DNA of 64,000 nucleotides from Candidatus Omnitrophota bacterium (GTDB taxonomy: Bacteria > Omnitrophota > Gorgyraeia > Gorgyraeales > Gorgyraeaceae): contig JBAZEP010000003.1 of the NCBI GenBank assembly GCA_041653835.1, positions 3,812 through 67,811 on the forward strand, given 5' to 3'. Below the pieces are notes generated by a model, which saw nothing but the letters and a program-made list of their open reading frames with translations, made no database searches and had not been told where the DNA came from. The translations under genes were made by a program, and so were the position numbers. Of this stretch, positions 1 through 43,166 are shown piece by piece (the stretch's first letter is position 1; each line of letters starts with the position of its first letter).

Positions 1-1515
1 AGAAAAACAAAGAAAGAAGCAGCCATCAAAGAAAAAGATGATAAAAAGCAAACAGCCATAGAGAAAACTAAAGAGGCGCAAGATGCACTCACTAGTATTA
101 AAAATACTTTGAAACACACCCTTAACATTAACGACAAGATTAATTGGAATTCTTTATTGGATGAATCTAAATACCCTAAGAACAAGCCTAAAAGTCCAGA
201 ATTATTTACCATGCCAATTGAGCCCCAGAAAAATGACAAAGAATTTACGCCCAAAATAAACTTTATTATATCGTTGTTTTCTAGTTTAAAACAAAAAAGA
301 ATTGGAGAGGCGAATTGTTTATTCGAACGAGCCTATTCTGAATGGAAAATAAAAAAGAACAGTACGGAAGAAAATAATAGAAAATTACTCGAAAAGTATG
401 AAGAAGAAAGTTTGAAATGGCAAGAAGAGGAGAAAAAATATATTGTAAAGAGAGAAGAGAAAAATAAACGAATTTTAGAAAAAAAGGAAAAGTATTTTAG
501 AAAAGATCCAGCTATGATCGCAGAGTATTGTGAAATGATCTTGTCGAATTCGCAATATCCTGATACCTTTCCGCAGGAATTCGATGTTGAATATATACCC
601 GAATCTAAGATTTTGTTAGTAGATTATTTTCTACCAAGCATAGAAGATTTGCCGACATTAAAGGAAGTCAAATATAACATTTCACAAGACCAATTCAAAG
701 AAATACAAATTTCTGAATCAGATTTAAATAAATTATATGATAGCCTCTTATATCAAATAACACTCAGGACAATGCATGAGTTATATGAAGCAGATGTGAT
801 TGATGCTGTCGCCTCAATTATATTCAATGGATATGTTAGATTCATAGATAGCGGCACAGGAAAAGAAGTTTGTGCCTGCATTCTTTCAATTCAAGTGCAA
901 AGAGAAGATTTCTTAAATATTAATCTTGAGAATATTGAACCTAAAGCTTGTTTTAAAGCTTTAAAAGGCATAGGGAGCAGCAAACTTCACGGACTTGCAC
1001 CAATAGCTCCGATTATGAAACTGAACAAAGAAGATAAAAGATTTATAGTGCCATATGAAGTAGCGGGCAAAATTGATGAAGGAACAAATATTGCGGCAAT
1101 GGATTGGCAAGATTTTGAAAACTTAATTAGAGAACTATTTGAAAAAGAATTTGTTCCCGAAGGAGGAGAGGTAAAAATAACTAGAGCAAGTCGAGATGAA
1201 GGTGTAGATGCGGTAATATTTGATCCTGATCCGATTCGTGGTGGCAAGATTGTGATACAGGCTAAAAGGTATACTAATGTAGTTGGGGTTTCAGCTGTTC
1301 GCGATTTATATGGCACAGTTCTTAATGAAGGAGCGATGAAAGGTATTCTTGTTACCACAGCTGATTATGGTCCTGATTCCTATAAATTTGCCCAAGATAA
1401 ACCAATAACTTTATTAAATGGTAACAACCTTTTGCATCTATTGGAAAAGCATGGTCATAAGGCTAAAATTGATATAAGAGAGGCAAAGAAAATTTTAGGT
1501 AAAAAGGTAACTTGA
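1..1515 (+). CDS. Mrr-type restriction endonuclease catalytic-domain protein. A Lys/Glu-rich coiled-coil N-terminal region is fused to a C-terminal Mrr_cat PD-(D/E)xK nuclease domain. The gene is probably 5'-truncated by the window edge.
   Basis: The frame is open from nt 1, and the ORF track starts at TTG 109. The C-terminus (WQDFENLIRELF...GVDAVIFDPD...IVIQAKRYTNVVGVSAVRDLYG...GILVTTADY) matches the Mrr_cat restriction-endonuclease domain pattern (D..D...QCKRY...V..L.G......GI.VTT..F). The gene is AT-rich. Confidence 0.6.
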   Translation, partial: RKTKKEAAIKEKDDKKQTAIEKTKEAQDALTSIKNTLKHTLNINDKINWNSLLDESKYPKNKPKSPELFTMPIEPQKNDKEFTPKINFIISLFSSLKQKRIGEANCLFERAYSEWKIKKNSTEENNRKLLEKYEEESLKWQEEEKKYIVKREEKNKRILEKKEKYFRKDPAMIAEYCEMILSNSQYPDTFPQEFDVEYIPESKILLVDYFLPSIEDLPTLKEVKYNISQDQFKEIQISESDLNKLYDSLLYQITLRTMHELYEADVIDAVASIIFNGYVRFIDSGTGKEVCACILSIQVQREDFLNINLENIEPKACFKALKGIGSSKLHGLAPIAPIMKLNKEDKRFIVPYEVAGKIDEGTNIAAMDWQDFENLIRELFEKEFVPEGGEVKITRASRDEGVDAVIFDPDPIRGGKIVIQAKRYTNVVGVSAVRDLYGTVLNEGAMKGILVTTADYGPDSYKFAQDKPITLLNGNNLLHLLEKHGHKAKIDIREAKKILGKKVT

Positions 1516-1755
1516 TAATGGTAAATATGGACATGTCAAAAAGGGACACACCTATTTGAAGAGTGTCCCCAGATGACACGTCCCCCATAAGTCCCATCTG
1601 GACATCCCTAGTTAGCAAAACGAGTTTCTCGAGATTTCCTTGAGAAAAAGGCTAAGGGCATATTGATTTCATTGAAAGTTGAAAAAGAACATTCCGCTAA
1701 TAGTTGTTAATAGTAACTTCGCTTGTTTTACCTAACAAATTGTATATTTTTTGCT

Positions 1756-1784
1756 TGACATATTAACAATCATTTGCTAAAGTT
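1756..1784 (+). promoter_or_regulatory. sigma70-like promoter TTGACA-N17-TAAAGT upstream of the HTH paralog array
   Basis: Consensus -35 hexamer and a TAnnnT -10, about 40 nt upstream of paralog 1. Confidence 0.5.
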
Positions 1785-1823
1785 TATAGATAATCAAATG
1801 AGATTATAATAAGGAGGGTGCAA

Positions 1824-2105
1824 ATGGAAAGAATATTGCAAAGAATCGATAATAATTTGAAAATTATATTATCAATTCTACTGGAAAAGAAAATAAAGGA
1901 AGGCAACCTTTCGGACCAACAGCAAGTATCTTTTCTTCAGGAAAGAGGATTAGGGATAGCAGAGATAGCTATGGTGCTAGGTAAAACGTCAAATGCTGTG
2001 CGTATTTTACTCACTCGTTTGCGCAAAAAAGGTCAGAAGATTCCTAAAGGAGGAAATCAATGTCAGAAAAAATTCAAGAAAATCAGGAGATACTTAAGAG
2101 ACTAG
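1824..2105 (+). CDS. small HTH protein (sigma-70 region-4 / resolvase-HTH-like), paralog 1 of 5 tandem copies
   Basis: The RBS AAGGAGGG sits 6 nt upstream of the ATG. A C-terminal HTH (GLGIAEIAMVLGKTSNAVRILLTRLRKK) is shared by the four downstream paralogs. The 3' tail overlaps the start of paralog 2. Confidence 0.55.
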   Translation: MERILQRIDNNLKIILSILLEKKIKEGNLSDQQQVSFLQERGLGIAEIAMVLGKTSNAVRILLTRLRKKGQKIPKGGNQCQKKFKKIRRYLRD

Positions 2106-2287
2106 ATATTATTATTAGATTGCTATTGCGGAATATGAAGTCAAAAGAGAGTAATTTATTATTTATGGAACAGATTGGATTGTTAAAGGAGATAGGTTTA
2201 TCTACAGCAGATATCTCTAAAATAACTGGGAAACCGTCAAATTATGTTAGTTCAGTTATTAAGCATTTATCTAAAAAAAGGGGTTAG
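2060..2287 (+). CDS. small HTH protein, paralog 2 of 5
   Basis: RBS AAAGGAGGA; same L.rLD.iI.LL...G....dIA.ilG...n.V pattern as its neighbours. Confidence 0.55.
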   Translation: MSEKIQENQEILKRLDIIIRLLLRNMKSKESNLLFMEQIGLLKEIGLSTADISKITGKPSNYVSSVIKHLSKKRG

Positions 2288-2292
2288 TAGAC

Positions 2293-2499
2293 ATGGAAGA
2301 AAAAAGCCTTTCAGATTTAAGCAAGAAGGTTGATATGGTAATAAAATTAATGATTGCAGGTTTGACTGCGGATAAACAGTTGACTGACCAAGTAAAAATT
2401 CTTGCTTTGGCTGGAATCAAACCTAAAGATATTGCAGATATTCTAGGAACTACTCCAAATACGGTTAGTGTTCTATTGTCAAGAAACAAGAGAAAGTGA
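2293..2499 (+). CDS. small HTH protein, paralog 3 of 5
   Basis: RBS AAAGGGG; HTH motif IADILGTTPNTVSVLLSRNKRK. Confidence 0.55.
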   Translation: MEEKSLSDLSKKVDMVIKLMIAGLTADKQLTDQVKILALAGIKPKDIADILGTTPNTVSVLLSRNKRK

Positions 2500-2508
2500 G
2501 AGGAGAAT

Positions 2509-2763
2509 ATGGAAAAGAAAAAGCCTAAAAGTAATCCGCAAGATGATTCAGTAGATATGACTAAAGTGCTTCTTGAACGATTGATAGTTATTAGTGAAAA
2601 CTCAATGATCGTAAATCTTGCCCTAAAGGGTATTCCTCATCAACAGATCAGAAAAATGGCACAATGCGATATGCGACGAATAACAAGATTATTAAAACCA
2701 GTTAATAAATATATTAAGAAATTTGTTGCCGAGAACGGGACTATAATAGATAAGGAGAAATAA
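2509..2763 (+). CDS. small HTH-like protein, paralog 4 of 5 (most divergent)
   Basis: RBS GAGGAG. It shares the N-terminal L..LI.I and Q.I.....G pattern, but the HTH is degenerate. Confidence 0.5.
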   Translation: MEKKKPKSNPQDDSVDMTKVLLERLIVISENSMIVNLALKGIPHQQIRKMAQCDMRRITRLLKPVNKYIKKFVAENGTIIDKEK

Positions 2764-2764
2764 T

Positions 2765-2980
2765 ATGTCTAAAGATGATGAAATATTACAAAAGTTAGAT
2801 TTGGTCATCAAATTGTTAGGGATAATAGCCACACAGGCAGATCTGTCAAAAAAACTACAACGAGAACAAATTGTTATCCTGGATAAGCACGGTTTTAGAA
2901 ATAAAGATATTGCAAATATTTTTGGGATTAAAGCACAACAAGTAAACAATGCATTATTAGGTAATAAAAAAAGAAAATGA
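2765..2980 (+). CDS. small HTH protein, paralog 5 of 5
   Basis: RBS AAGGAGA; LQKLDLVIKLL...KDIANIFGIKAQQVNNALLGNKKRK. Confidence 0.55.
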   Translation: MSKDDEILQKLDLVIKLLGIIATQADLSKKLQREQIVILDKHGFRNKDIANIFGIKAQQVNNALLGNKKRK

Positions 2981-4038
2981 TTTTTAAGGGGAAAAAATAT
3001 AAAATTGCAATGCTATTAGGCGCTGGAGCGACTAGGGGAGCATTGAGGGGTGTGTCAAGGCCAGTTATAAGAGCCCCATTAAATAAAGATTTTTTTGAAG
3101 TCGCTAAGAGATTTATTTCTTGCCCAGAAGGTAGAAGATATAAAAATTGTTTTATTCGTGTAAGCAAATTTATTTCTGATCAAATGATGCCGTTTAACAA
3201 AAGGCATCCAACTATGGAAGAAGTTTTTAGCACACTTTTTATGTCTAAAGATTTGCCTGTTATCTTTAAAACAGGAAGGGGTAGAATAAGGAAGGAAGGT
3301 TTTAGGCCTGAAATTAGAGATTTTTTAGTTTTGCTAATTGCTATATTTAGATTTCTTCAAATGAATTTAAAACACAAAGATAACATAGACCATTATGCAA
3401 GATTAGTTGCAAAGTTGGAAGAGGGAGATAGCATTATTACTTTGAATTATGATACTTTAGTAGATAATGCCTTGTTGGGTGTTGGATGGAGACCAGAAAA
3501 TGGCTATGGATTCAACGCTTCTTCTAAAATAATCTATAGTAATTTAAGGGCTGTGAAAAGAAGATTTAAAAATGTTTATCTTTTAAAACCACATGGGTCT
3601 CTAAATTGGTTTGCAAGAGGTAAAATTTCTAATCTTGAAGAAACATTGAGTAGGAAAAATGTTTCAAGGATTGATATTGCAAATGCTCCGCGGCTATATA
3701 CTTTAAAGCAAGATAAGTATGTAAGATTTTTTATTCCCCCTCTTTATACAAAATTTTTCAATAATGATTTCTGGAGATATCTTTGGCATGAATCTTATTT
3801 GAGATTAAAGAATTGTAATTGTTTAATAATAATAGGTTGTTCGTTGATTACAACTGACTATCATTTACGAGCGATACTTTCAAAAGTATTAAAAAGTAAG
3901 AAAAAGTTTAAGAAAATTATCATAGTTGACAAAAATCTAAAAGTAGTGGGTAACCTAAAGAAATTTTTTAGAGGTGCTAGTTTTTCTGGTTGTGAAACAT
4001 ACAATACATTTACGGAATACATAGAAAGTTTAAATTAA
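2977..4038 (+). CDS. SIR2-like (SIR2_2/DUF4020-type) domain protein, candidate NADase defence effector
   Basis: Motifs LLGAGATRGA (glycine-rich NAD-binding), TLNYDTLVDN (TNYD motif) and LLKPHGSLNWF (HG catalytic motif) match defence-associated SIR2_2 proteins. Its start overlaps the stop of HTH paralog 5. Confidence 0.6.
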   Translation: MIFKGKKYKIAMLLGAGATRGALRGVSRPVIRAPLNKDFFEVAKRFISCPEGRRYKNCFIRVSKFISDQMMPFNKRHPTMEEVFSTLFMSKDLPVIFKTGRGRIRKEGFRPEIRDFLVLLIAIFRFLQMNLKHKDNIDHYARLVAKLEEGDSIITLNYDTLVDNALLGVGWRPENGYGFNASSKIIYSNLRAVKRRFKNVYLLKPHGSLNWFARGKISNLEETLSRKNVSRIDIANAPRLYTLKQDKYVRFFIPPLYTKFFNNDFWRYLWHESYLRLKNCNCLIIIGCSLITTDYHLRAILSKVLKSKKKFKKIIIVDKNLKVVGNLKKFFRGASFSGCETYNTFTEYIESLN

Positions 4039-4067
4039 CCAAGTTTATAAAGAATTATGTTAATTTT

Positions 4068-4769
4068 TTGCAAATGCCCAAGAACAGATTAAGCAAAAAA
4101 CTTTTATTAAAAGTTGCTAGTAAGTCTAAACATAAACTTAAATACGTAAGAGAACAAATAAGTAAACGAGCGAGTAGGTTGAGCATTAATGCAGAAGCAG
4201 CTCTGATCCTTTGGGCAAAAGAATTAGGCATAGGGACAGCCGCATTTCAACATTCTTTACCTCCTCATATCCAGTTAGACATTAGAAATAGTTTGTCATC
4301 ACCAGCTGGGCATATTAAGAGCGGGAGAGTATTAAAATCAAAGCGTAATTTAAATATGGTATCCAGTAAATCATTGATTAATATAGACGACTTAATTCAG
4401 GATGATGAGCTTCGCAATAGATGCAAAGATTTATTAATGGCTAAAGATAAGTTTGATCGAGTGATTAGAGAAGCAACGACAGTATTAGATCATCGAATTA
4501 AAAAGGCGGGAGGTTTGAAAAATATAAATCCAGTAGATGCTGTTGGTAAAGTATTAAATCCAGATCCCAATAAAGCCATTCTTAAAATAAGTGAAGAAAA
4601 GTCCTTACAGGAAGGGTTCTTTTCTATATGCAAAGGGCTAATGTTGGCTTTCCGTGATCCAGCACATCATGAGATTACTGATAATTTTAGCAGGGAAGAG
4701 GCAATAAAGTTTTGTGGTTTAGTAGATATTGTTTTGGGAGCTATCTCGAAATCAAGTAAAATAACTTAA
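4068..4769 (+). CDS. HEPN-like (TIGR02391/Abi-type) domain protein
   Basis: The C-terminal region carries an Rx4H-type motif (FRDPAHHE) in a helical context resembling Abi/HEPN RNase families. The gene sits immediately downstream of the SIR2 gene in the AT-rich island. Confidence 0.45.
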   Translation: MQMPKNRLSKKLLLKVASKSKHKLKYVREQISKRASRLSINAEAALILWAKELGIGTAAFQHSLPPHIQLDIRNSLSSPAGHIKSGRVLKSKRNLNMVSSKSLINIDDLIQDDELRNRCKDLLMAKDKFDRVIREATTVLDHRIKKAGGLKNINPVDAVGKVLNPDPNKAILKISEEKSLQEGFFSICKGLMLAFRDPAHHEITDNFSREEAIKFCGLVDIVLGAISKSSKIT

Positions 4770-5001
4770 TGGTTCTGTAGATATGAACTTAAAACTTCAG
4801 CAGTTCCGCAGGTTTTGATTTCGATGTTTTACCAGCCCTAGCAGGTTTGAGAAAAGCTTTTTGTTTTGCGGGACATAAGATATTGCATTGCTGGGATGTT
4901 GCCTGTCAAAACAAAACAGAGCGAAGCCCACATTACCAAATAATCCATCTTTTGGTTGAGCGTCTTTTCGAAAGCCTGACAGGGATGGCAAAAACACCTT
5001 A

Positions 5002-5044
5002 ACCGCGTAGGATGCCTACGGTAACCTACGCGGTTTTTCTTTTT
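5002..5044 (+). terminator. intrinsic terminator (10-bp stem ACCGCGTAGG/CCTACGCGGT + TTTTCTTTTT)
   Basis: Perfect stem with a 13-nt loop and a T-run, in the non-coding zone after the AT-rich island. Confidence 0.75.
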
Positions 5045-5153
5045 CATTGACACTTTTATAATTTCTGGTAAGATATAGGTACAATTTACTTCAAAAGCGC
5101 GACTGGCGATGCATGCATGGGAAACCATGAGGGAGCGCGAATACGCAAAATCG

Positions 5154-5192
5154 AACGCCTGGGTTTTAAGAATCCAGGCGTTTATTGTTTTT
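5154..5192 (+). terminator. intrinsic terminator (9-bp stem AACGCCTGG/CCAGGCGTT + TATTGTTTTT), 3' end of a candidate small RNA
   Basis: Hairpin plus T-tract about 100 nt downstream of the promoter-like TTGACA at 5046. No ORF lies between them. Confidence 0.65.
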
Positions 5193-5211
5193 GGCCCTTG
5201 ACATTTTGCCC

Positions 5212-5490
5212 ATGAATTCAGGATATTACTTTTATATCTTAGTATGTAGCGATGGTTCTAAATATTATGGCCATACAAATAATTTAGCGAAACGTTTTTC
5301 ATATCATTCAAAAGGATGTGTTTCCTCTACAAAAAGCAAGCGGCCGGTAAAGTTGGTTTATTATGAGGAATTTAATTCCCGGCCAGAAGCTTTTAGAAGA
5401 GAAATGCAGTTTAAAAACGGCAGGACAAGAAAAGAGACTATAGAAAACCTAATAAACTCTTTCGACATGGGCAAAATGTCAAGGGTTTAA
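5212..5490 (+). CDS. GIY-YIG nuclease superfamily protein (YhbQ/UPF0213-like), copy 1
   Basis: [30 protein letters not shown]...[11 protein letters not shown]...[11 protein letters not shown] matches the GIY-YIG motif. The track ORF starts at TTG 5185; the ATG is at 5212. Confidence 0.7.
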
Positions 5491-5566
5491 TTCGCAGACG
5501 GCCTTCGGCCTACAAGTTACGTCGCTACGCTCCATAACTTGTCTGCTCATTAAAGGAGACTATTAT

Positions 5567-7777
5567 ATGTTCACACGCGGACGTTGGGACAAAACAATAG
5601 ATATAAGGGATTTTATTAATAGGAATTATAAGCCGTATGACGGGGATGAGTCATTTTTGTGCGGGCCTACAGCCAGGACCAAAAAACTCTGGCAGGAATG
5701 CCTTACGCTTTTCAAGAAAGAGCACGATAAAGGCGGGGTTTTTGATATCGACGTATCAACTGTATCGACTATCACAAGCCACAAGCCCGGTTATATAGAT
5801 AAGAAGCTTGAGATCATTAAGGGACTGCAGACCGATAAGCCGCTTAAAAGGGCGATAAAGCCGCTGGGCGGCATACGCATGGTGGAGCAGGCCTGCGAGG
5901 ACTATGGGTATGAACTGGATAATAAGATCAAAGAGATATATTTAAAATATCGCAAGACGCATAATGACGGTGTGTTCGATTCTTATACCACGGATATATT
6001 AAGGGCCAGGCGCACAGGACTTATTACAGGCCTGCCGGATAATTATTCAAGGGGAAGGATAATAGGCGATTATAGACGCGTGGCGCTCTACGGCATAGAA
6101 AAGCTTATTAAAGCGAAAAAACATGATAAGGAGCTATTAGAGGATTATTCTTCCCAGGAGGCAGTAAAGTTAAGGGAAGAGATAGCTGACCAGATAGGAG
6201 CCTTGGAAGATATTATAAAATTAGGTAGCTCCTACGGCTTTGACCTGACAAGGCCGGCGGAAGACGCGAAAGAAGCTTTCCAATGGGTTTATCTGGCTTA
6301 TCTCGCGGCCATAAAGGAACAGGACGGGGCAGCAATGAGCCTTGGAAGCGTGAGTAATTTCTTTGATATATACATTGAAAGAGATATTAACCTGGGAAAA
6401 TTGACTGAAGAAAAGGCTCAGGAACTGGTGGATGACTTTGTGATAAAACTGCGCATGGTGCGGCACTTAAGGCCAAAATCATATGATGAGATATTCGCGG
6501 GCGATCCGGTATGGATAACAGAGAGTATAGCGGGGATAGGTATAGACGGCAGGCACAAGGTCACAAAGACATCTTACAGGTTCTTACAGACTTTATACAA
6601 CCTGGGGCCTGCTCCTGAGCCGAATCTTACGGTTTTGTGGTCATCCCGGCTTCCTGAGAATTTTAAGAGATTCTGCGCGAAAGTTTCCATTACCACGAGC
6701 TCTATCCAGTATGAGAATGATGACCTGATGCGCTCCATAGGCGGGGATGATTACAGTATTTCATGCTGTGTGTCGCTTTTAAAGAACGGAAGTGAGATGC
6801 AGTATTTCGGGGCGAGATGTAATCTCGCGAAGGTATTGCTCTACGCGCTAAATGAGGGAAGGGATGAGATCACAGGAGAAACAGTTGTCCCGGGCATAGC
6901 GCCTATAAGTTCTGAGCCACTAGACCATGATGAGGTAAAAGAGCGTTTTATGCAGGTCCTGCGCTGGACCACGAGGACATATGTCCAGGCGCTTAATATC
7001 ATCCATTCAGTGCATGATACGTATTATTACGAACGCTCGCAGATGGCTTTACTTAATACGGAACTCACGCGTTATATGGCATTCGGCATAGCCGGCTTGT
7101 CTGTAGTGGCTGATTCTTTAAGCGCTATACGTTACGCCAAAGTCAGCGCTATACGCAATAATAAAGGCCTTACAACGGATTTTAAGATCAAGGGAGATTT
7201 TTACGCATTTGGGAATGATGATGACAGGGTGGATGGGAGAGTCGTGGACCTCGTTACCACGTTCCTCTCTGAGATCAAAAAACATAAATTTTACAGGGAT
7301 TCTCTTCCCGCGGTTTCTATCCTTACAATTACTTCGAACGTAATGTATGGCAAGAAAACAGGCGCTACCCCTGACGGAAGGAAAAAAGGCGAACCTTTTG
7401 CCCCAGGCGCGAATCCCATGCACGGCAGGGATAAAAACGGGATAGTGGCATCTTTAAATTCCGTAGCGAGTATCCCTTATTCCGAATGCAGGGATGGTAT
7501 ATCGAACACATTTACCACTGTGCCGGATACATTGGGGAAGACTAAGGACGAGCGGATAACGAACCTCGCGGGTTTACTCGAAGGATATTTTATTAAAGGC
7601 GCACAGCACTTGAATGTCAATGTGATAGATAAGGCGACGCTTAAAGACGCGATGAAGCATCCGCATAAATATCCGCAGTTAACTATCCGCGTGTCAGGAT
7701 ACGCTGTTCATTTTAATAAGTTGTCAGGTGAACAGCAGAGAGAGGTCCTGGCAAGGACATTTCATGAAAGCATGTAA
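5567..7777 (+). CDS. pflB: formate C-acetyltransferase (pyruvate formate-lyase)
   Basis: The N-terminus ([20 protein letters not shown]) and the C-terminal glycyl-radical motif (RVSGYAVHF) are both present; the protein is 736 aa. Confidence 0.95.
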
Positions 7778-8504
7778 GAAAAACTCTATAGCTGGAAGGG
7801 TCCATTCAATAGAAAGTTTCGCGACACAGGATGGGCCGGGCATACGTTTCCTTGTGTTTTTGCAGGGATGTAGCGCAAGGTGCCTTTATTGCCAGAATCC
7901 TGATACTTGGGAGCTGAAGTCCGGGTTTGATATGAGTCCGGAAGAGGTGCTTGAAAAAGTAAAGCGCTGTATGCCGTATATAAGAGCATCCAAAGGAGGC
8001 ATTACTGTTTCAGGAGGGGAGCCGCTTTTACAAATAGATTTCTTGATAAAACTGTTTAAACTCTGTAAACTGAATGATATTCATACAGCGGTTGATACGA
8101 GCGCTTTTTTTAATAAGCCCGACAGGAAACTTGTAGAAAAACTCATCGCGCTTACAGACCTTTTTATCGTAGATATAAAGGCCGCGCGCGCGAGTCTCCA
8201 TAAAAAGATAACATCAAGAGAATTAAGCGAGGTCATGGAGTTTTTAAACATCCTTGAGTCAAAGAAAACGCATTACTGGTTAAGGTATGTGCTTGTGCCG
8301 AAATTAAATGATTCAAAAAAAGATATGGAGGCGCTAAAAAAGATCCTCGCAAGGCTAAAGTTTTGCGAAAAATTCGAATTCCTTCCATATCATACTCTCG
8401 GCAAACATAAATGGGAATATATGAAACTCAAATATCCCTTGCGCAATACGCGTCCGGCAACTTCGCAGGATATAAAAAGAGCTCAACTCGCGTTAAATAA
8501 ATAG
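7764..8504 (+). CDS. pflA: pyruvate formate-lyase activating enzyme (radical SAM)
   Basis: [11 protein letters not shown] radical-SAM CxxxCxxC motif is present. The gene overlaps the pflB stop codon. Confidence 0.9.
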
Positions 8505-8515
8505 AAAGGATAATT

Positions 8516-10210
8516 ATGAAAAGTGATATCGAGATCGCCCGTGAAGTGAAATTAACGCCGATTGTAAAAATCGCCAAGAAAATAGGTATCCGCGAGGATG
8601 AACTGGAACTTCATGGTAAGTTTAAGGCAAAGGTGGAACTTTCTATTTTAAAGCGTACGAAGGATAGGCGTGACGGTAAATATATAGATGTCACCGCTAT
8701 AACACCTACGCCGCTTGGCGAAGGTAAGACCGTTACTACGATCGGTCTATCATTAGGATTAGCCAAAATAGGTAAAAAGGTTTCTACCTGTATAAGACAG
8801 CCGTCTTTGGGGCCTGTATTCGGTATAAAGGGCGGTGCTGCAGGCGGCGGACATTCCCAGGTGGTGCCAATGGAAGATTTTAATCTGCATTTGACAGGCG
8901 ATGTGCATGCCGTAGGCCTGGCGCATAATCTCTGCGCGGCATTCCTGGATAATTCTCTTTTCAGGGGAAATAAACTAAATATAGACCCTGCGGCTATACT
9001 CTGGAGAAGGGTGGTTGATGTGAGCGACAGGGCTTTACGCAATATTACTATAGGCCAGGGGTCCAAGGATGATGGTATCCCGCGCCAGACAGGTTTTGAT
9101 ATTACAGTGGCATCCGAAGTCATGGCGATCCTTGCACTTGCGAGCGACCTAAAGGATCTGCGTGAACGTTTAGGCAGGATAGTAGTGGCTTTTACCCGGG
9201 AGGGGAAGCCTGTTACTACCGAGGACCTGAAGGTAGCCGGGTCAATGGCAGTGCTTTTAAAGGATGCTATTAAGCCTACGCTAATGCAGACAACCGAACA
9301 CACTCCGTGTTTTGTGCACGCGGGCCCCTTCGCTAATATCGCGCATGGGAATAACTCTATTATCGCGGACAGGATCGCTCTTAAACTGAGCGATTATGTG
9401 GTTACTGAAAGCGGGTTCGGCGCTGATTGCGGGGCTGAGAAGGCATTTGATATTAAATGCCGTATCGGCGGCCTGGTGCCAAACGCAGTGGTAATTGTAT
9501 GTTCCATCAGGGCGCTAAAGATGCATAGCGGGAGGTTTAAGGTAGTGGCTGGAAAGCCTTTGAGTGAAGATCTATTAAAGGAAAATATAGAAGCGATCGA
9601 ACAGGGCGCGGTAAACCTGGAAAAACATATTGAGAATATAAGCTTATTCGGACTGCCTGCCGTAGTAGCGATAAATAAATTTACTACTGATACTGATAAA
9701 GAAATAGAAGCAGTGAAGAAAAAGGCCTTAGCCGCGGGCGCTAGTGACGCTGTAATAAGCGATGTGTGGCTAAGAGGCGGAGAGGGCGGAAAAGACCTTG
9801 CCAGGGCAGTAGTAAAGGCCGCGGAGAAGCCGTCTAATTTTAAATTCCTATATTCGCTGGATGAACCGATCACGCAAAAAATAGAAAAAATAGCCACGAA
9901 GATTTATGGCGCCGCAAAGGTTGAGTATCTGCCTGAGGCGGCAAAAAAGTTAGAACTTTATACTAAACTTGGCTATGATAAATTACCTATCTGTATGGCA
10001 AAGACGCATTTGTCTCTTTCCCATGACCCGCTTTTAAAAGGCAGGCCAACAGGATTTACCCTTCCTATCCGCGATATACGCGTGGCAGCCGGGGCAGGGT
10101 TTTTATATCCATTATGCGGTGAGATGCGCACCATGCCGGGGCTCCCCTCGGAACCCGCAGGAACACATATTGACTTAGATGAAAATGATAATGTCATGGG
10201 ATTATTTTGA
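8516..10210 (+). CDS. fhs: formate--tetrahydrofolate ligase
   Basis: TPLGEGKTVTTIGL P-loop with a length and sequence typical of FTHFS. Confidence 0.95.
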   Translation: MKSDIEIAREVKLTPIVKIAKKIGIREDELELHGKFKAKVELSILKRTKDRRDGKYIDVTAITPTPLGEGKTVTTIGLSLGLAKIGKKVSTCIRQPSLGPVFGIKGGAAGGGHSQVVPMEDFNLHLTGDVHAVGLAHNLCAAFLDNSLFRGNKLNIDPAAILWRRVVDVSDRALRNITIGQGSKDDGIPRQTGFDITVASEVMAILALASDLKDLRERLGRIVVAFTREGKPVTTEDLKVAGSMAVLLKDAIKPTLMQTTEHTPCFVHAGPFANIAHGNNSIIADRIALKLSDYVVTESGFGADCGAEKAFDIKCRIGGLVPNAVVIVCSIRALKMHSGRFKVVAGKPLSEDLLKENIEAIEQGAVNLEKHIENISLFGLPAVVAINKFTTDTDKEIEAVKKKALAAGASDAVISDVWLRGGEGGKDLARAVVKAAEKPSNFKFLYSLDEPITQKIEKIATKIYGAAKVEYLPEAAKKLELYTKLGYDKLPICMAKTHLSLSHDPLLKGRPTGFTLPIRDIRVAAGAGFLYPLCGEMRTMPGLPSEPAGTHIDLDENDNVMGLF

Positions 10211-16483: not shown

Positions 16484-16524
16484 GTTGACAATCGCGCTTT
16501 AAAATGATTTAATAAGATAAATAA

Positions 16525-16664
16525 CGGGGAGGCCGCTGGATCGCGGCCTGAGAGTTCCGTGGAGCGAACGGATTACCCTTTGAACCTGAACTGGATAATG
16601 CCAGCGTAGGGAAAGATGTTAATTGTTCCGGCCCTTACGCGTTGTGTGTAAGGGTTATTTTTTT
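16525..16664 (+). promoter_or_regulatory. TPP (THI-box) riboswitch with intrinsic-terminator expression platform
   Basis: The conserved CUGAGA and ACCCUUUGAACCUGA.CUGGAUAAUGCCAGCGUAGGGAA core is present. It is followed by hairpin CCCTTAC...GTAAGGG plus a T-tract at 16632-16664, directly upstream of thi4. Confidence 0.85.
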
Positions 16665-28429: not shown

Positions 28430-28504
28430 GCGCCTGTGGCCTAATGGATAGGGCACCAGCCTCCGGAGCTGGTCGTGCAGGTTCGATTCCTGCCAGGCGC
28501 ACCA
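28430..28504 (+). tRNA. tRNA-Arg (anticodon CCG), CCA encoded
   Basis: Cloverleaf with GCGCCTG/CAGGCGC acceptor stem, anticodon loop CTCCGGA and GTTCGATTC T-loop. Confidence 0.85.
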
Positions 28505-42730: not shown

Positions 42731-42807
42731 GCGCCCGTAGCTCAATTGGATAGAGTGGCTGGCTTCGAACCAGCAGGTTGGGTGTTCGATTCACCCCGGG
42801 CGCACCA
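42731..42807 (+). tRNA. tRNA-Arg (anticodon TCG)
   Basis: Cloverleaf with anticodon loop CTTCGAA. CCA is encoded. Confidence 0.8.
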
Positions 42808-42820
42808 TGCCTAAATATTA

Positions 42821-42849
42821 TTGACGGATTTTTTAACCTGTGATATCAT
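42821..42849 (+). promoter_or_regulatory. promoter TTGACG-N17-(TGa)TATCAT for the tRNA Lys-Leu-Gly cluster
   Basis: Near-consensus -35 and an extended -10, 27 nt upstream of tRNA-Lys. Confidence 0.55.
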
Positions 42850-42875
42850 TTAATCTTAACATCTGAACTAAGAGT

Positions 42876-42951
42876 GCCCCCATAGCTCAGTTGGTAGAGC
42901 ACCTGACTCTTAATCAGGGTGTCACAGGTTCGAGCCCTGTTGGGGGTACCA
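42876..42951 (+). tRNA. tRNA-Lys (anticodon CTT)
   Basis: Anticodon loop CTCTTAA. CCA is encoded. Confidence 0.8.
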
Positions 42952-42952
42952 C

Positions 42953-43037
42953 GCGAGGGTGGCGGAATTGGCAGACGCGCTAGCCTTAGGAGCTAGTGGG
43001 GAGACCCCTGAGGGTTCGACTCCCTCCTCTCGCACCA
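42953..43037 (+). tRNA. tRNA-Leu (anticodon TAG), long variable arm
   Basis: Anticodon loop CTTAGGA with an extra arm; 85 nt. Confidence 0.8.
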
Positions 43038-43091
43038 AATGTGCTGTATGCTTCTAACCTGGTTAGAAGTAGATGAGAAGTAGATGTGTAC

Positions 43092-43166
43092 GCGGGAGTA
43101 GCTCAGTGGTAGAGCTTCTCGTTGCCAACGAGAAGGTCGCGGGTTCGAACCCCGTCTCCCGCTCCA
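43092..43166 (+). tRNA. tRNA-Gly (anticodon GCC)
   Basis: GCGGGAGTAGCTCAGTGGTAGAGC...TTGCCAA...GGTTCGAAC. Confidence 0.85.

Follow-up and report, generated by a model that had tools for sequence, protein, structure and literature searches.

Near its left end, a 64,000-nucleotide stretch of DNA from a Candidatus Omnitrophota bacterium (GenBank assembly GCA_041653835.1, contig JBAZEP010000003.1, positions 3,812 to 67,811; hereafter the window, with positions counted from its first letter) carries a seven-gene operon at 1824-4769, in which five small helix-turn-helix (HTH) genes are combined with a SIR2-family gene and a HEPN-family gene (Table 1). We judge it somewhat better than an even bet that this operon joins two related modules, each made of an array of small HTH genes and a toxic effector, and that it works as an autorepressed, toxin-antitoxin (TA)-like abortive-infection module with swappable effectors. 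Under the same joint estimate, the HEPN-type module would comprise HTH1-3, open reading frame 4 (ORF4) and an adaptor-bearing HEPN protein, and the SIR2-type module would comprise HTH5, translationally coupled to SIR2. The original prediction, made from the letters of the window alone, had seen here a defence locus built from an Mrr-type nuclease, SIR2 and HEPN; a role in conflict or defence is plausible, but the unit is an HTH array with one effector rather than the combination of Mrr, SIR2 and HEPN.

The unit became visible by comparing loci that carry relatives of either effector. We fetched 80 metagenome loci of the HEPN family and about 23 loci of the SIR2 family, approximately 1.3 Mb of DNA in all, and located the members of the small-HTH family in them. 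All 242 ORFs of this family lie within 2 kb of an effector. The same family is found beside SIR2 in 19 of 19 loci of the SIR2 family, and of the 42 HEPN-family loci with sufficient flanking sequence, 39 have two to five such genes. Where the SIR2 relative is about 50% identical, one to three HTH genes precede it, the last of which overlaps the SIR2 start, while relatives with 35-43% identity have a single HTH gene immediately downstream. In this second clade (L011-L030), a winged-HTH gene encoding 100-130 aa stands directly upstream of SIR2 (for instance at 7672-8004 in L012 and 7702-8004 in L027), with the pattern ...AFNLCDGT..Q.EIAKK...GNLSR...W...G..F..G.G..ARLLHIYP, and genes like it stand before the array in L004 and L093, so that the minimal SIR2 system, too, includes two different small DNA-binding proteins. 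Homologues of SIR2 were found only in metagenomes and metagenome-assembled genomes, and are spread over Omnitrophota, Acidobacteriota, Planctomycetota, Verrucomicrobiota, Nitrospirota, Chloroflexota, Clostridia and Aenigmatarchaeota; the HEPN family occurs in bacteria of the candidate phyla radiation, Bathyarchaeia and Woesearchaeota.

The pairing of the two effectors does not recur in this way. SIR2 is present in 0 of the 80 HEPN-family metagenome loci and HEPN in 0 of the approximately 23 SIR2-family loci, and the two occur together only in the window and in the near-identical short contigs L088, L089 and L184. A conserved SIR2-HEPN pair, which the original prediction had put forward together with co-occurrence as a check, is ruled out by these counts, and the idea of a single locus of Mrr, SIR2 and HEPN falls with it, Mrr also being absent from L089. 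Could SIR2 and HEPN, with or without Mrr, nevertheless form one integrated multi-effector system, for example with a SIR2 product activating HEPN? The single promoter, the intergenic gaps of at most 35 nt and the retention of the layout in L089 at 84-93% protein identity would all fit; we regard it as very unlikely given that the pairing is confined to these few sequences, that each effector has its own cognate small gene, and that a tRNA gene replaces Mrr in L089.

Clustering of the small HTH genes separates two subfamilies. The first, h0, resembles sigma factor region 4 and occurs in both SIR2 and HEPN loci. The second, h1 (about 60 aa, consensus ELLxDLLIxxLxxAGVxQxxIRKIVGCDMxRVxRI), occurs only with adaptor-bearing, HEPN-type loci; in 44 of 58 loci it is the gene that directly precedes HEPN, and SIR2-only loci lack it. 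The window has the order h0, h0, h0, h1, then h0 and SIR2, then HEPN. HTH5 is closest to the HTH genes that directly precede SIR2 in the SIR2-only loci L001, L009 and L015 (52-59% identity), while ORF4 finds its best outside matches in HEPN-only loci without exception, and HTH1-3 find most of theirs there (for HTH1, seven of the eight listed). Because the best hits tie HTH5 to SIR2-only loci, and ORF4 and HTH1-3 to HEPN-only loci, the simplest reading of these sequence relationships is that the operon is a composite, in which HTH5 and SIR2 are nested between the ORF4 and HEPN genes of a HEPN-type operon.

The five small ORFs are real genes under purifying selection. Compared with L089, where the proteins are 84-96% identical, all seven genes of the operon have ratios of nonsynonymous to synonymous substitution rates (dN/dS) of 0.10-0.23, with values of 0.23 for HTH1, 0.21 for HTH2, 0.17 for HTH3, 0.15 for ORF4, 0.21 for HTH5 and 0.10 for SIR2. 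The five tandem paralogous mini-HTH genes of the original prediction thus hold up as one HTH family, consisting of four h0 members and the divergent h1 member ORF4, which has no Pfam or other database match and whose membership in the family is visible only after profile iteration. HTH1, HTH2, HTH3 and HTH5 are 21-43% identical to one another and share an N-terminal helix (ILxKLDxxIKLL) and a C-terminal HTH of the sigma-70 region 4.2 type (GxxxxDIAxILGxxxNTV). The stop codon of HTH5 overlaps the SIR2 start as ATGA, and the same overlap is found in L001, L009 and L015. HTH1 has lost a stop codon that is kept in L089 (...KGGN-stop, just before the HTH2 start); in the window, it reads on for about 16 codons (2052-2105), giving a 46-nt overlap with HTH2. 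The product of HTH2 (P0241) has no NCBI source or name, being found in Logan and ENA only, while the other four small genes have NCBI names, which suggests that HTH2 is not annotated in the NCBI record.

To judge from profile and structure comparisons, the small proteins resemble sigma region 4 but are not sigma factors. The Pfam profile Sigma70_r4_2 reached 20.7 and 20.3 bits, where the gathering score is 25.7 (on HTH1, a weak match with E 3e-4), and matches to HTH_23 and sigma70-ECF were likewise weak or sub-threshold. No region 2 was found in these proteins of 68-95 aa. The predicted fold of HTH3 (AlphaFold2, pLDDT 87) consists of a long N-terminal helix and a three-helix HTH, which Foldseek matched best to ECF sigma region 4 and to HTH domains of the CRP and LuxR types, in no case significantly (E ≥0.48). 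These likenesses open up another explanation of the arrays, in which the small proteins act as sensors or decoys that imitate a transcription module of the host or attach to invading DNA. The effector would be released or assembled when phage take-over proteins (such as anti-sigma factors directed at region 4) or foreign DNA bound to them, and several diverged paralogues would widen the range of triggers. Arrays of two to five paralogues with mutual identities of 20-43% are more easily explained by multiple recognition modules than by one antitoxin, and the effector swapping described below is typical of sensor-effector immune systems. We still consider this explanation unlikely, as the structural and profile matches are not significant, the small proteins are conserved to the same degree as the effectors, under purifying selection and with no sign of arms-race diversification, and the operator kept between the promoter boxes of relatives speaks for plain DNA binding and autoregulation. 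Its most specific form, in which the arrays would be decoys of the host transcription machinery, and phage proteins that hijack sigma region 4 would bind them and thereby free SIR2, HEPN, TIR or nuclease effectors, seems to us more doubtful still; we know of no guard-type decoy immunity described in prokaryotes.

The last gene of the operon, whose start we placed at 4074, encodes a protein of two domains. Its C-terminal domain matches Hypoth_Ymh (PF09509/TIGR02391) with E 6.9e-13, above the Pfam threshold, and has the four-helix HEPN fold and the Rx4-6H motif that define the HEPN superfamily and its Ymh family; R196-x4-H201 is invariant in an alignment of 30 homologues. The HEPN-like domain with an Rx4H motif that had been noticed in the sequence is therefore borne out. 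The first 78 residues form a separate helical domain. A relationship between this domain and the small HTH family is unsupported (hhalign probability 0.65%). Using a profile of this N-terminal domain, we recovered 162 cluster representatives among 1.84 billion proteins, all of them at most 276 aa long. In the longer of these proteins, Ymh is replaced by a TIR domain of the CAP12/Pycsar type, by TIR_2, by HEPN_Swt1 or by pP_pnuc_1, a predicted pPIWI-associated nuclease. The contigs that carry the TIR, nuclease and Swt1 variants (L177-L183; proteins P0275, P0271 and P0323) have h0 and h1 genes directly upstream, and the TIR-variant example adjoins a type III restriction-modification (R-M) system. 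Conflict systems typically show this pattern, in which one adaptor stays the same and the toxic domains joined to it are exchanged. The 78-residue domain appears to be an undescribed adaptor domain and, judging by gene content across these loci, the small-HTH array is the conserved core of the family, behind which the effectors are interchangeable.

The SIR2 protein, a predicted NAD+-consuming effector, likewise keeps its catalytic motifs. SIR2_2 (PF13289) matches residues 152-317 with 28.8 bits against a gathering score of 24.5, and the PADLOC models SIR2 and Aga_SIR2 match at the domain level with E 1e-9. A Rossmann motif begins at residue 15, and GxGA, N36xD38, N157-Y-D-T and H206-G-S are invariant in 30 homologues. 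Homologues of the protein are uniformly 342-368 aa long. Scoring above the gathering score and with N157 and H206 invariant, the protein belongs to the SIR2_2 superfamily, as had been predicted from its TNYD and HGS motifs. The closest solved sequences are two entries named "SIR2-like domain-containing protein", 8w9l and 8j4u (E 0.003), which we take to be SIR2-HerA entries. One could also read the operon as ordinary transcription factors beside a metabolic sirtuin and an unrelated conserved hypothetical protein, without any genetic conflict, considering that SIR2 families include housekeeping deacetylases and that HTH proteins are generic. We hold this to be extremely improbable: the match is to SIR2_2 and not to the sirtuin deacetylase family, the island has a foreign composition, effector domains of the TIR, nuclease and HEPN kinds replace one another, and the module moves between genomic contexts.

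All genes of the AT-rich island that holds the operon are on the plus strand, and the operon has one promoter, of the sigma-70 type, before HTH1. A promoter scan placed its -35 box, TTGACA, at 1755-1760 and an extended -10 box, (TG)TAAAGT, at 1778-1783, separated by a spacer of 17 nt; a ribosome binding site, GGAGG, follows at 1813-1817. An inverted repeat pairs 1696-1712 with 1761-1777, so that its right arm falls within the promoter spacer. The leader is conserved in L089 over 1615-1790, and the sequence further upstream differs. Across 69 non-redundant loci, the hexamer CTAATG/CATTAG has a density of 3.14 per kb over the 200 bp that lead up to the first gene of the array, against 0.17 per kb elsewhere, an 18-fold enrichment. 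In many HEPN-type loci this operator lies between the -35 and -10 boxes, with an inverted second copy about 11 nt downstream, as in L122: cttgacacaatctcCTAATGatttagcataaCATTAG. The enrichment and the position of the operator strongly suggest that one of the HTH proteins autorepresses the promoters of these relatives.

From these observations, we infer the following course of events. One or more h0 proteins would repress the single promoter through the operator in the -35/-10 spacer, while the small protein encoded next to each effector would hold that effector inactive, by analogy with the antitoxin of three-part TA systems; the target of ORF4 would be the N-terminal domain of the HEPN protein, and that of HTH5, an h0 protein, would be SIR2. 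Phage infection or loss of the element would disturb the small proteins, upon which SIR2 may deplete NAD+ and HEPN may cut RNA, so that the cell would arrest and the infection would be aborted. The TA-like features themselves are the gene order, the ATGA overlap and the operator in the promoter spacer of relatives, with binding and neutralisation as predictions.

The module is also mobile. In L089 a tRNA gene precedes it (Rfam 36.3 bits; the contig end cuts the gene short), and the homology between L089 and the window stops at the HEPN stop codon. Considering the different upstream context and this abrupt end, the mobile unit extends over about 1615-4769 and excludes Mrr. Downstream of the operon in the closest relative (L089 3399-4898; L088 1009-2786) are two small genes of 144 and 70 aa and, beyond them on the opposite strand, an AbiJ-like gene (AbiJ_NTD5 and Abi_C) and an Xre-type HTH gene, a context unlike that in the window. 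Among 109 proteins that flank approximately 60 loci, those of R-M systems are the most common (N6_Mtase, 6; Methylase_S, 5; Eco57I, 5; N6_N4_Mtase, 3; ResIII, 2), followed by Schlafen/AlbA_2 and Fic with two each; the remainder are housekeeping singletons. L004 is flanked by GmrSD and a type I R-M system, L006 by a type I R-M system and an integrase, and L089 by AbiJ. A phage or plasmid origin is unsupported: scans of IMG/VR viral contigs with the SIR2, HEPN and HTH profiles returned no member of the family, only SIR2 proteins of 23-26% identity; tblastn against the 72,556 plasmids of PLSDB found no relatives; and the operon proteins had no significant match in PHROGs.

This context bears on whether the cassettes defend their hosts at all. 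They might be purely selfish addiction modules of the TA kind that stabilise a genomic island, with no part in defence against phages. A small HTH gene followed by a toxin with overlapping start and stop codons, a promoter that appears autoregulated, an island that is mobile and stands beside a tRNA gene in L089, and the many loci among housekeeping genes are all what such cassettes would be expected to show. To us, this alternative seems unlikely, though not negligible. R-M genes are the commonest neighbours of the family; SIR2, TIR, HEPN and nuclease effectors are typical of anti-phage systems such as Thoeris, DSR, Pycsar and Abi, and the effector set found here, with its pPIWI-associated nuclease, matches that repertoire; and no member was found on the 72,556 plasmids searched, where addiction modules are common.

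Several observations weigh against an autorepressed TA-like abortive-infection module. The window itself has only a one-mismatch half-site of the operator (ATCATTtG, 1769-1776), which is not significant alone and is chance-like in AT-rich DNA. The enrichment of defence neighbours comes from a small sample, the 109 flanking proteins, with crude gene calling, and many loci lie between housekeeping genes rather than in defence islands. Among cultured organisms we found no family member. A classical TA system would do with fewer small HTH genes than the two to five seen per locus, and the small proteins, at 60-95 aa, have no obvious separate toxin-binding domain. Finally, h0 genes are divergently transcribed in L090, L124, L136 and L150, so that h0 proteins may be regulators only.

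The operon lies in an island, positions 1-4800, that is compositionally foreign to the rest of the window. Its GC content is 0.326, against 0.470 in 4801-64000, and none of 272 other 4.8-kb segments falls below 0.446 (mean 0.473, standard deviation 0.011). Its tetranucleotide frequencies correlate with those of the remaining window with r = 0.41, where other 4.8-kb blocks reach 0.87-0.96. Both the striking AT-richness read from the letters and the tetranucleotide contrast that had been proposed as a check are thereby established. GC content is low in the Mrr ORF (0.332), in the leader that follows it (0.347) and across the operon (0.321), and rises to 0.427 in 4770-5184.

The Mrr-type gene at the start of the window is a type IV restriction gene in its own right, which shares the same, probably horizontally acquired, AT-rich DNA. 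Its frame is open at the window start, giving a product of more than 468 aa, and of at least 585 aa on contig L184. It matches the complete Mrr_cat domain (E 2e-29, profile positions 2-115 of 115) and carries GVDAV...IQAKRY, with the D...QxK residues of PD-(D/E)xK nucleases. Similarity continues beyond the catalytic domain, with the PADLOC model mREase_IV (PDLC03663) matching over 372 positions (160-531 of 544; E 2.4e-60), which places it among Mrr-like type IV enzymes; the gene, incomplete in the window, shows nothing notably different from them. Because Mrr is absent from the closest relative, L089, and has its own match to a full-length type IV model, we treat it as a separate system; as a component of the HTH-SIR2-HEPN system it is ruled out by the tRNA gene that takes its place upstream of the L089 operon. 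On the Aenigmatarchaeota contig L009, an Mrr_cat gene (1378-2304) also stands directly 5' of an HTH-HTH-SIR2 module. It resembles the Mrr of the window in the catalytic domain only (E 1e-12), and we take its position as a defence-island coincidence.

The right edge of the island calls for a different explanation from the one first offered, in which a GIY-YIG gene and a terminator-rich stretch marked an insertion boundary. Positions 1-5700 hold three terminator-like sites where 3.1 are expected, and the flank holds one. The non-coding stretch is the leader of a ZMP/ZTP riboswitch, of which this terminator is the expression platform, and it precedes host genes for GIY-YIG, pflB, pflA and formate-tetrahydrofolate ligase (fhs). 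The GIY-YIG gene lies outside the AT-rich block, and the genes led by the riboswitch have host composition. A small GIY-YIG ORF as the first gene behind a ZTP riboswitch is unusual. Elsewhere in the window, we found a TPP riboswitch (RF00059) at 16515-16629 (61.6 bits), a cluster of four tRNA genes at 42731-43166 (Arg-TCG, Lys-CTT, Leu-TAG, Gly-GCC) and a lone tRNA-Arg-CCG at 28430-28504.

Table 1. Features of the AT-rich island and its right flank (positions in the window; E values for the small genes are from profile hidden Markov models (HMMs) of the family)
Feature	Position	Strand	Remarks
Mrr-type (type IV, predicted modification-dependent) restriction endonuclease gene, 3' part	1-1515	+	frame open from base 1
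Conserved leader and promoter of operon	1615-1823	+	
HTH1	1824-2105	+	h0 subfamily, 93 aa; family HMM E 8e-14 to 2e-19
HTH2	2060-2287	+	h0, 75 aa; family HMM E 7e-17
HTH3	2293-2499	+	h0, 68 aa; family HMM E 1e-18
ORF4	2509-2763	+	h1 subfamily, 84 aa; iterated family HMM E 3.7e-12
HTH5	2765-2980	+	h0, 71 aa; best relatives are SIR2-adjacent HTH genes
SIR2	2977-4038	+	SIR2_2-family protein, 353 aa; predicted NAD+-consuming effector
HEPN	4074-4769	+	two-domain effector, 231 aa: N-terminal adaptor (aa 1-78), disordered linker, Ymh-type HEPN; predicted RNase
Promoter-like site of ZTP riboswitch	5047-5074		
ZMP/ZTP riboswitch (pfl motif, RF01750)	5089-5171		45.6 bits, cut-off 39
Terminator	5153-5183		expression platform of ZMP/ZTP riboswitch
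GIY-YIG	5185-5490		3' of ZTP riboswitch
pflB	5567-7777		3' of ZTP riboswitch
pflA	7728-8504		3' of ZTP riboswitch
fhs (formate-tetrahydrofolate ligase)	8516-10210		3' of ZTP riboswitch

How does this arrangement compare with known systems? Three-component type II TA systems, such as omega-epsilon-zeta and paaR2-paaA2-parE2, resemble it in having a separate small repressor, a small partner before the toxic enzyme, a single autoregulated promoter and translational coupling. Here, however, the small genes are two to five paralogues of one sigma region 4-like family and the toxins are SIR2, HEPN, TIR and nuclease proteins, and no sequence similarity to omega, epsilon, PaaA or PaaR was detected. 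Xre-RES systems consist of an NAD+-degrading toxin with an HTH antitoxin; they too set a small HTH gene beside an NAD+-consuming toxin, and NAD+ depletion and growth arrest would be expected in both cases, but our operon has the SIR2_2 fold instead of RES, a sigma region 4-like HTH with no HTH_3/Xre match, and several HTH genes. With the SIR2 systems of defence (Thoeris ThsA, DSR1/DSR2, SIR2-HerA, SPARSA), it shares a SIR2_2-type Rossmann domain with the catalytic Asn and His residues kept, but the protein is a minimal one of 353 aa, without SLOG, sensor, APAZ or STAND domains, and its partner is a small HTH protein; no TIR, HerA or pAgo partner was found in 1-5600. Taking these systems one by one, none of the nine ORFs of 1-5500 has a TIR match in Pfam, PADLOC or NCBIfam that could stand for ThsB, and in place of the SLOG or Macro domain of ThsA there is SIR2_2 only, and with a Rossmann motif that begins at residue 15 a second domain would not fit. 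DSR1 and DSR2 are proteins of about 1000 aa with a long C-terminal sensor, far larger than the SIR2 protein and its homologues. There is no ATPase ORF in 1-5500, nor one adjacent in L001, L004 or L006, that could act as HerA; and the likeness to SPARSA is limited to the domain-level Aga_SIR2 match, with no PIWI or APAZ match.

The HEPN gene gave a similar outcome. No nucleotidyltransferase match was found among the neighbouring ORFs, as HEPN-MNT would require. The HEPN domain is weakly like PD-Lambda-3_B (positions 144-256 of 270, E 1.7e-5), with the N-terminal part unmatched, and no homologue of PD-Lambda-3_A is present among the nine ORFs scanned. The Ymh family (PF09509/TIGR02391) is described in the passages devoted to it by Anantharaman et al. 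(2013, PMC3710099) as a predicted defence RNase that occurs solo or fused, in R-M neighbourhoods, and the fusions listed there are to paraMORC, AbiJ-NTD1 and AbiTii; those passages mention neither the N-terminal domain found in the window nor arrays of small HTH genes (PMC3710099). PADLOC, Pfam, NCBIfam and PHROGs contain no model for the small proteins or the adaptor domain, and we found no description of the architecture in the literature, with subscription journals mostly outside our coverage. The view of the original prediction that the gene order corresponds to no named system therefore stands for PADLOC, Pfam, NCBIfam and the literature searched. The effectors and the TA-like logic are of known kinds, while the small-HTH array, the adaptor domain and the swapping of effectors behind the array appear to be new.

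If this inference holds, the operon represents a new and widespread family of prokaryotic conflict systems, which culture-based screens would miss because every member seen comes from uncultivated organisms. Its organising principle, an array of tiny paralogous HTH proteins, would be unusual, and at least five interchangeable effectors, SIR2, Ymh-HEPN, Swt1-HEPN, TIR and the pPIWI-associated nuclease, would be joined to it. The CTAATG operator offers an immediate experimental handle, and the locus in the window, as a natural two-effector composite, could show how such modules fuse. Should the decoy explanation turn out to be true, the arrays would represent a guard-type strategy in a family so far confined to uncultivated bacteria and archaea.

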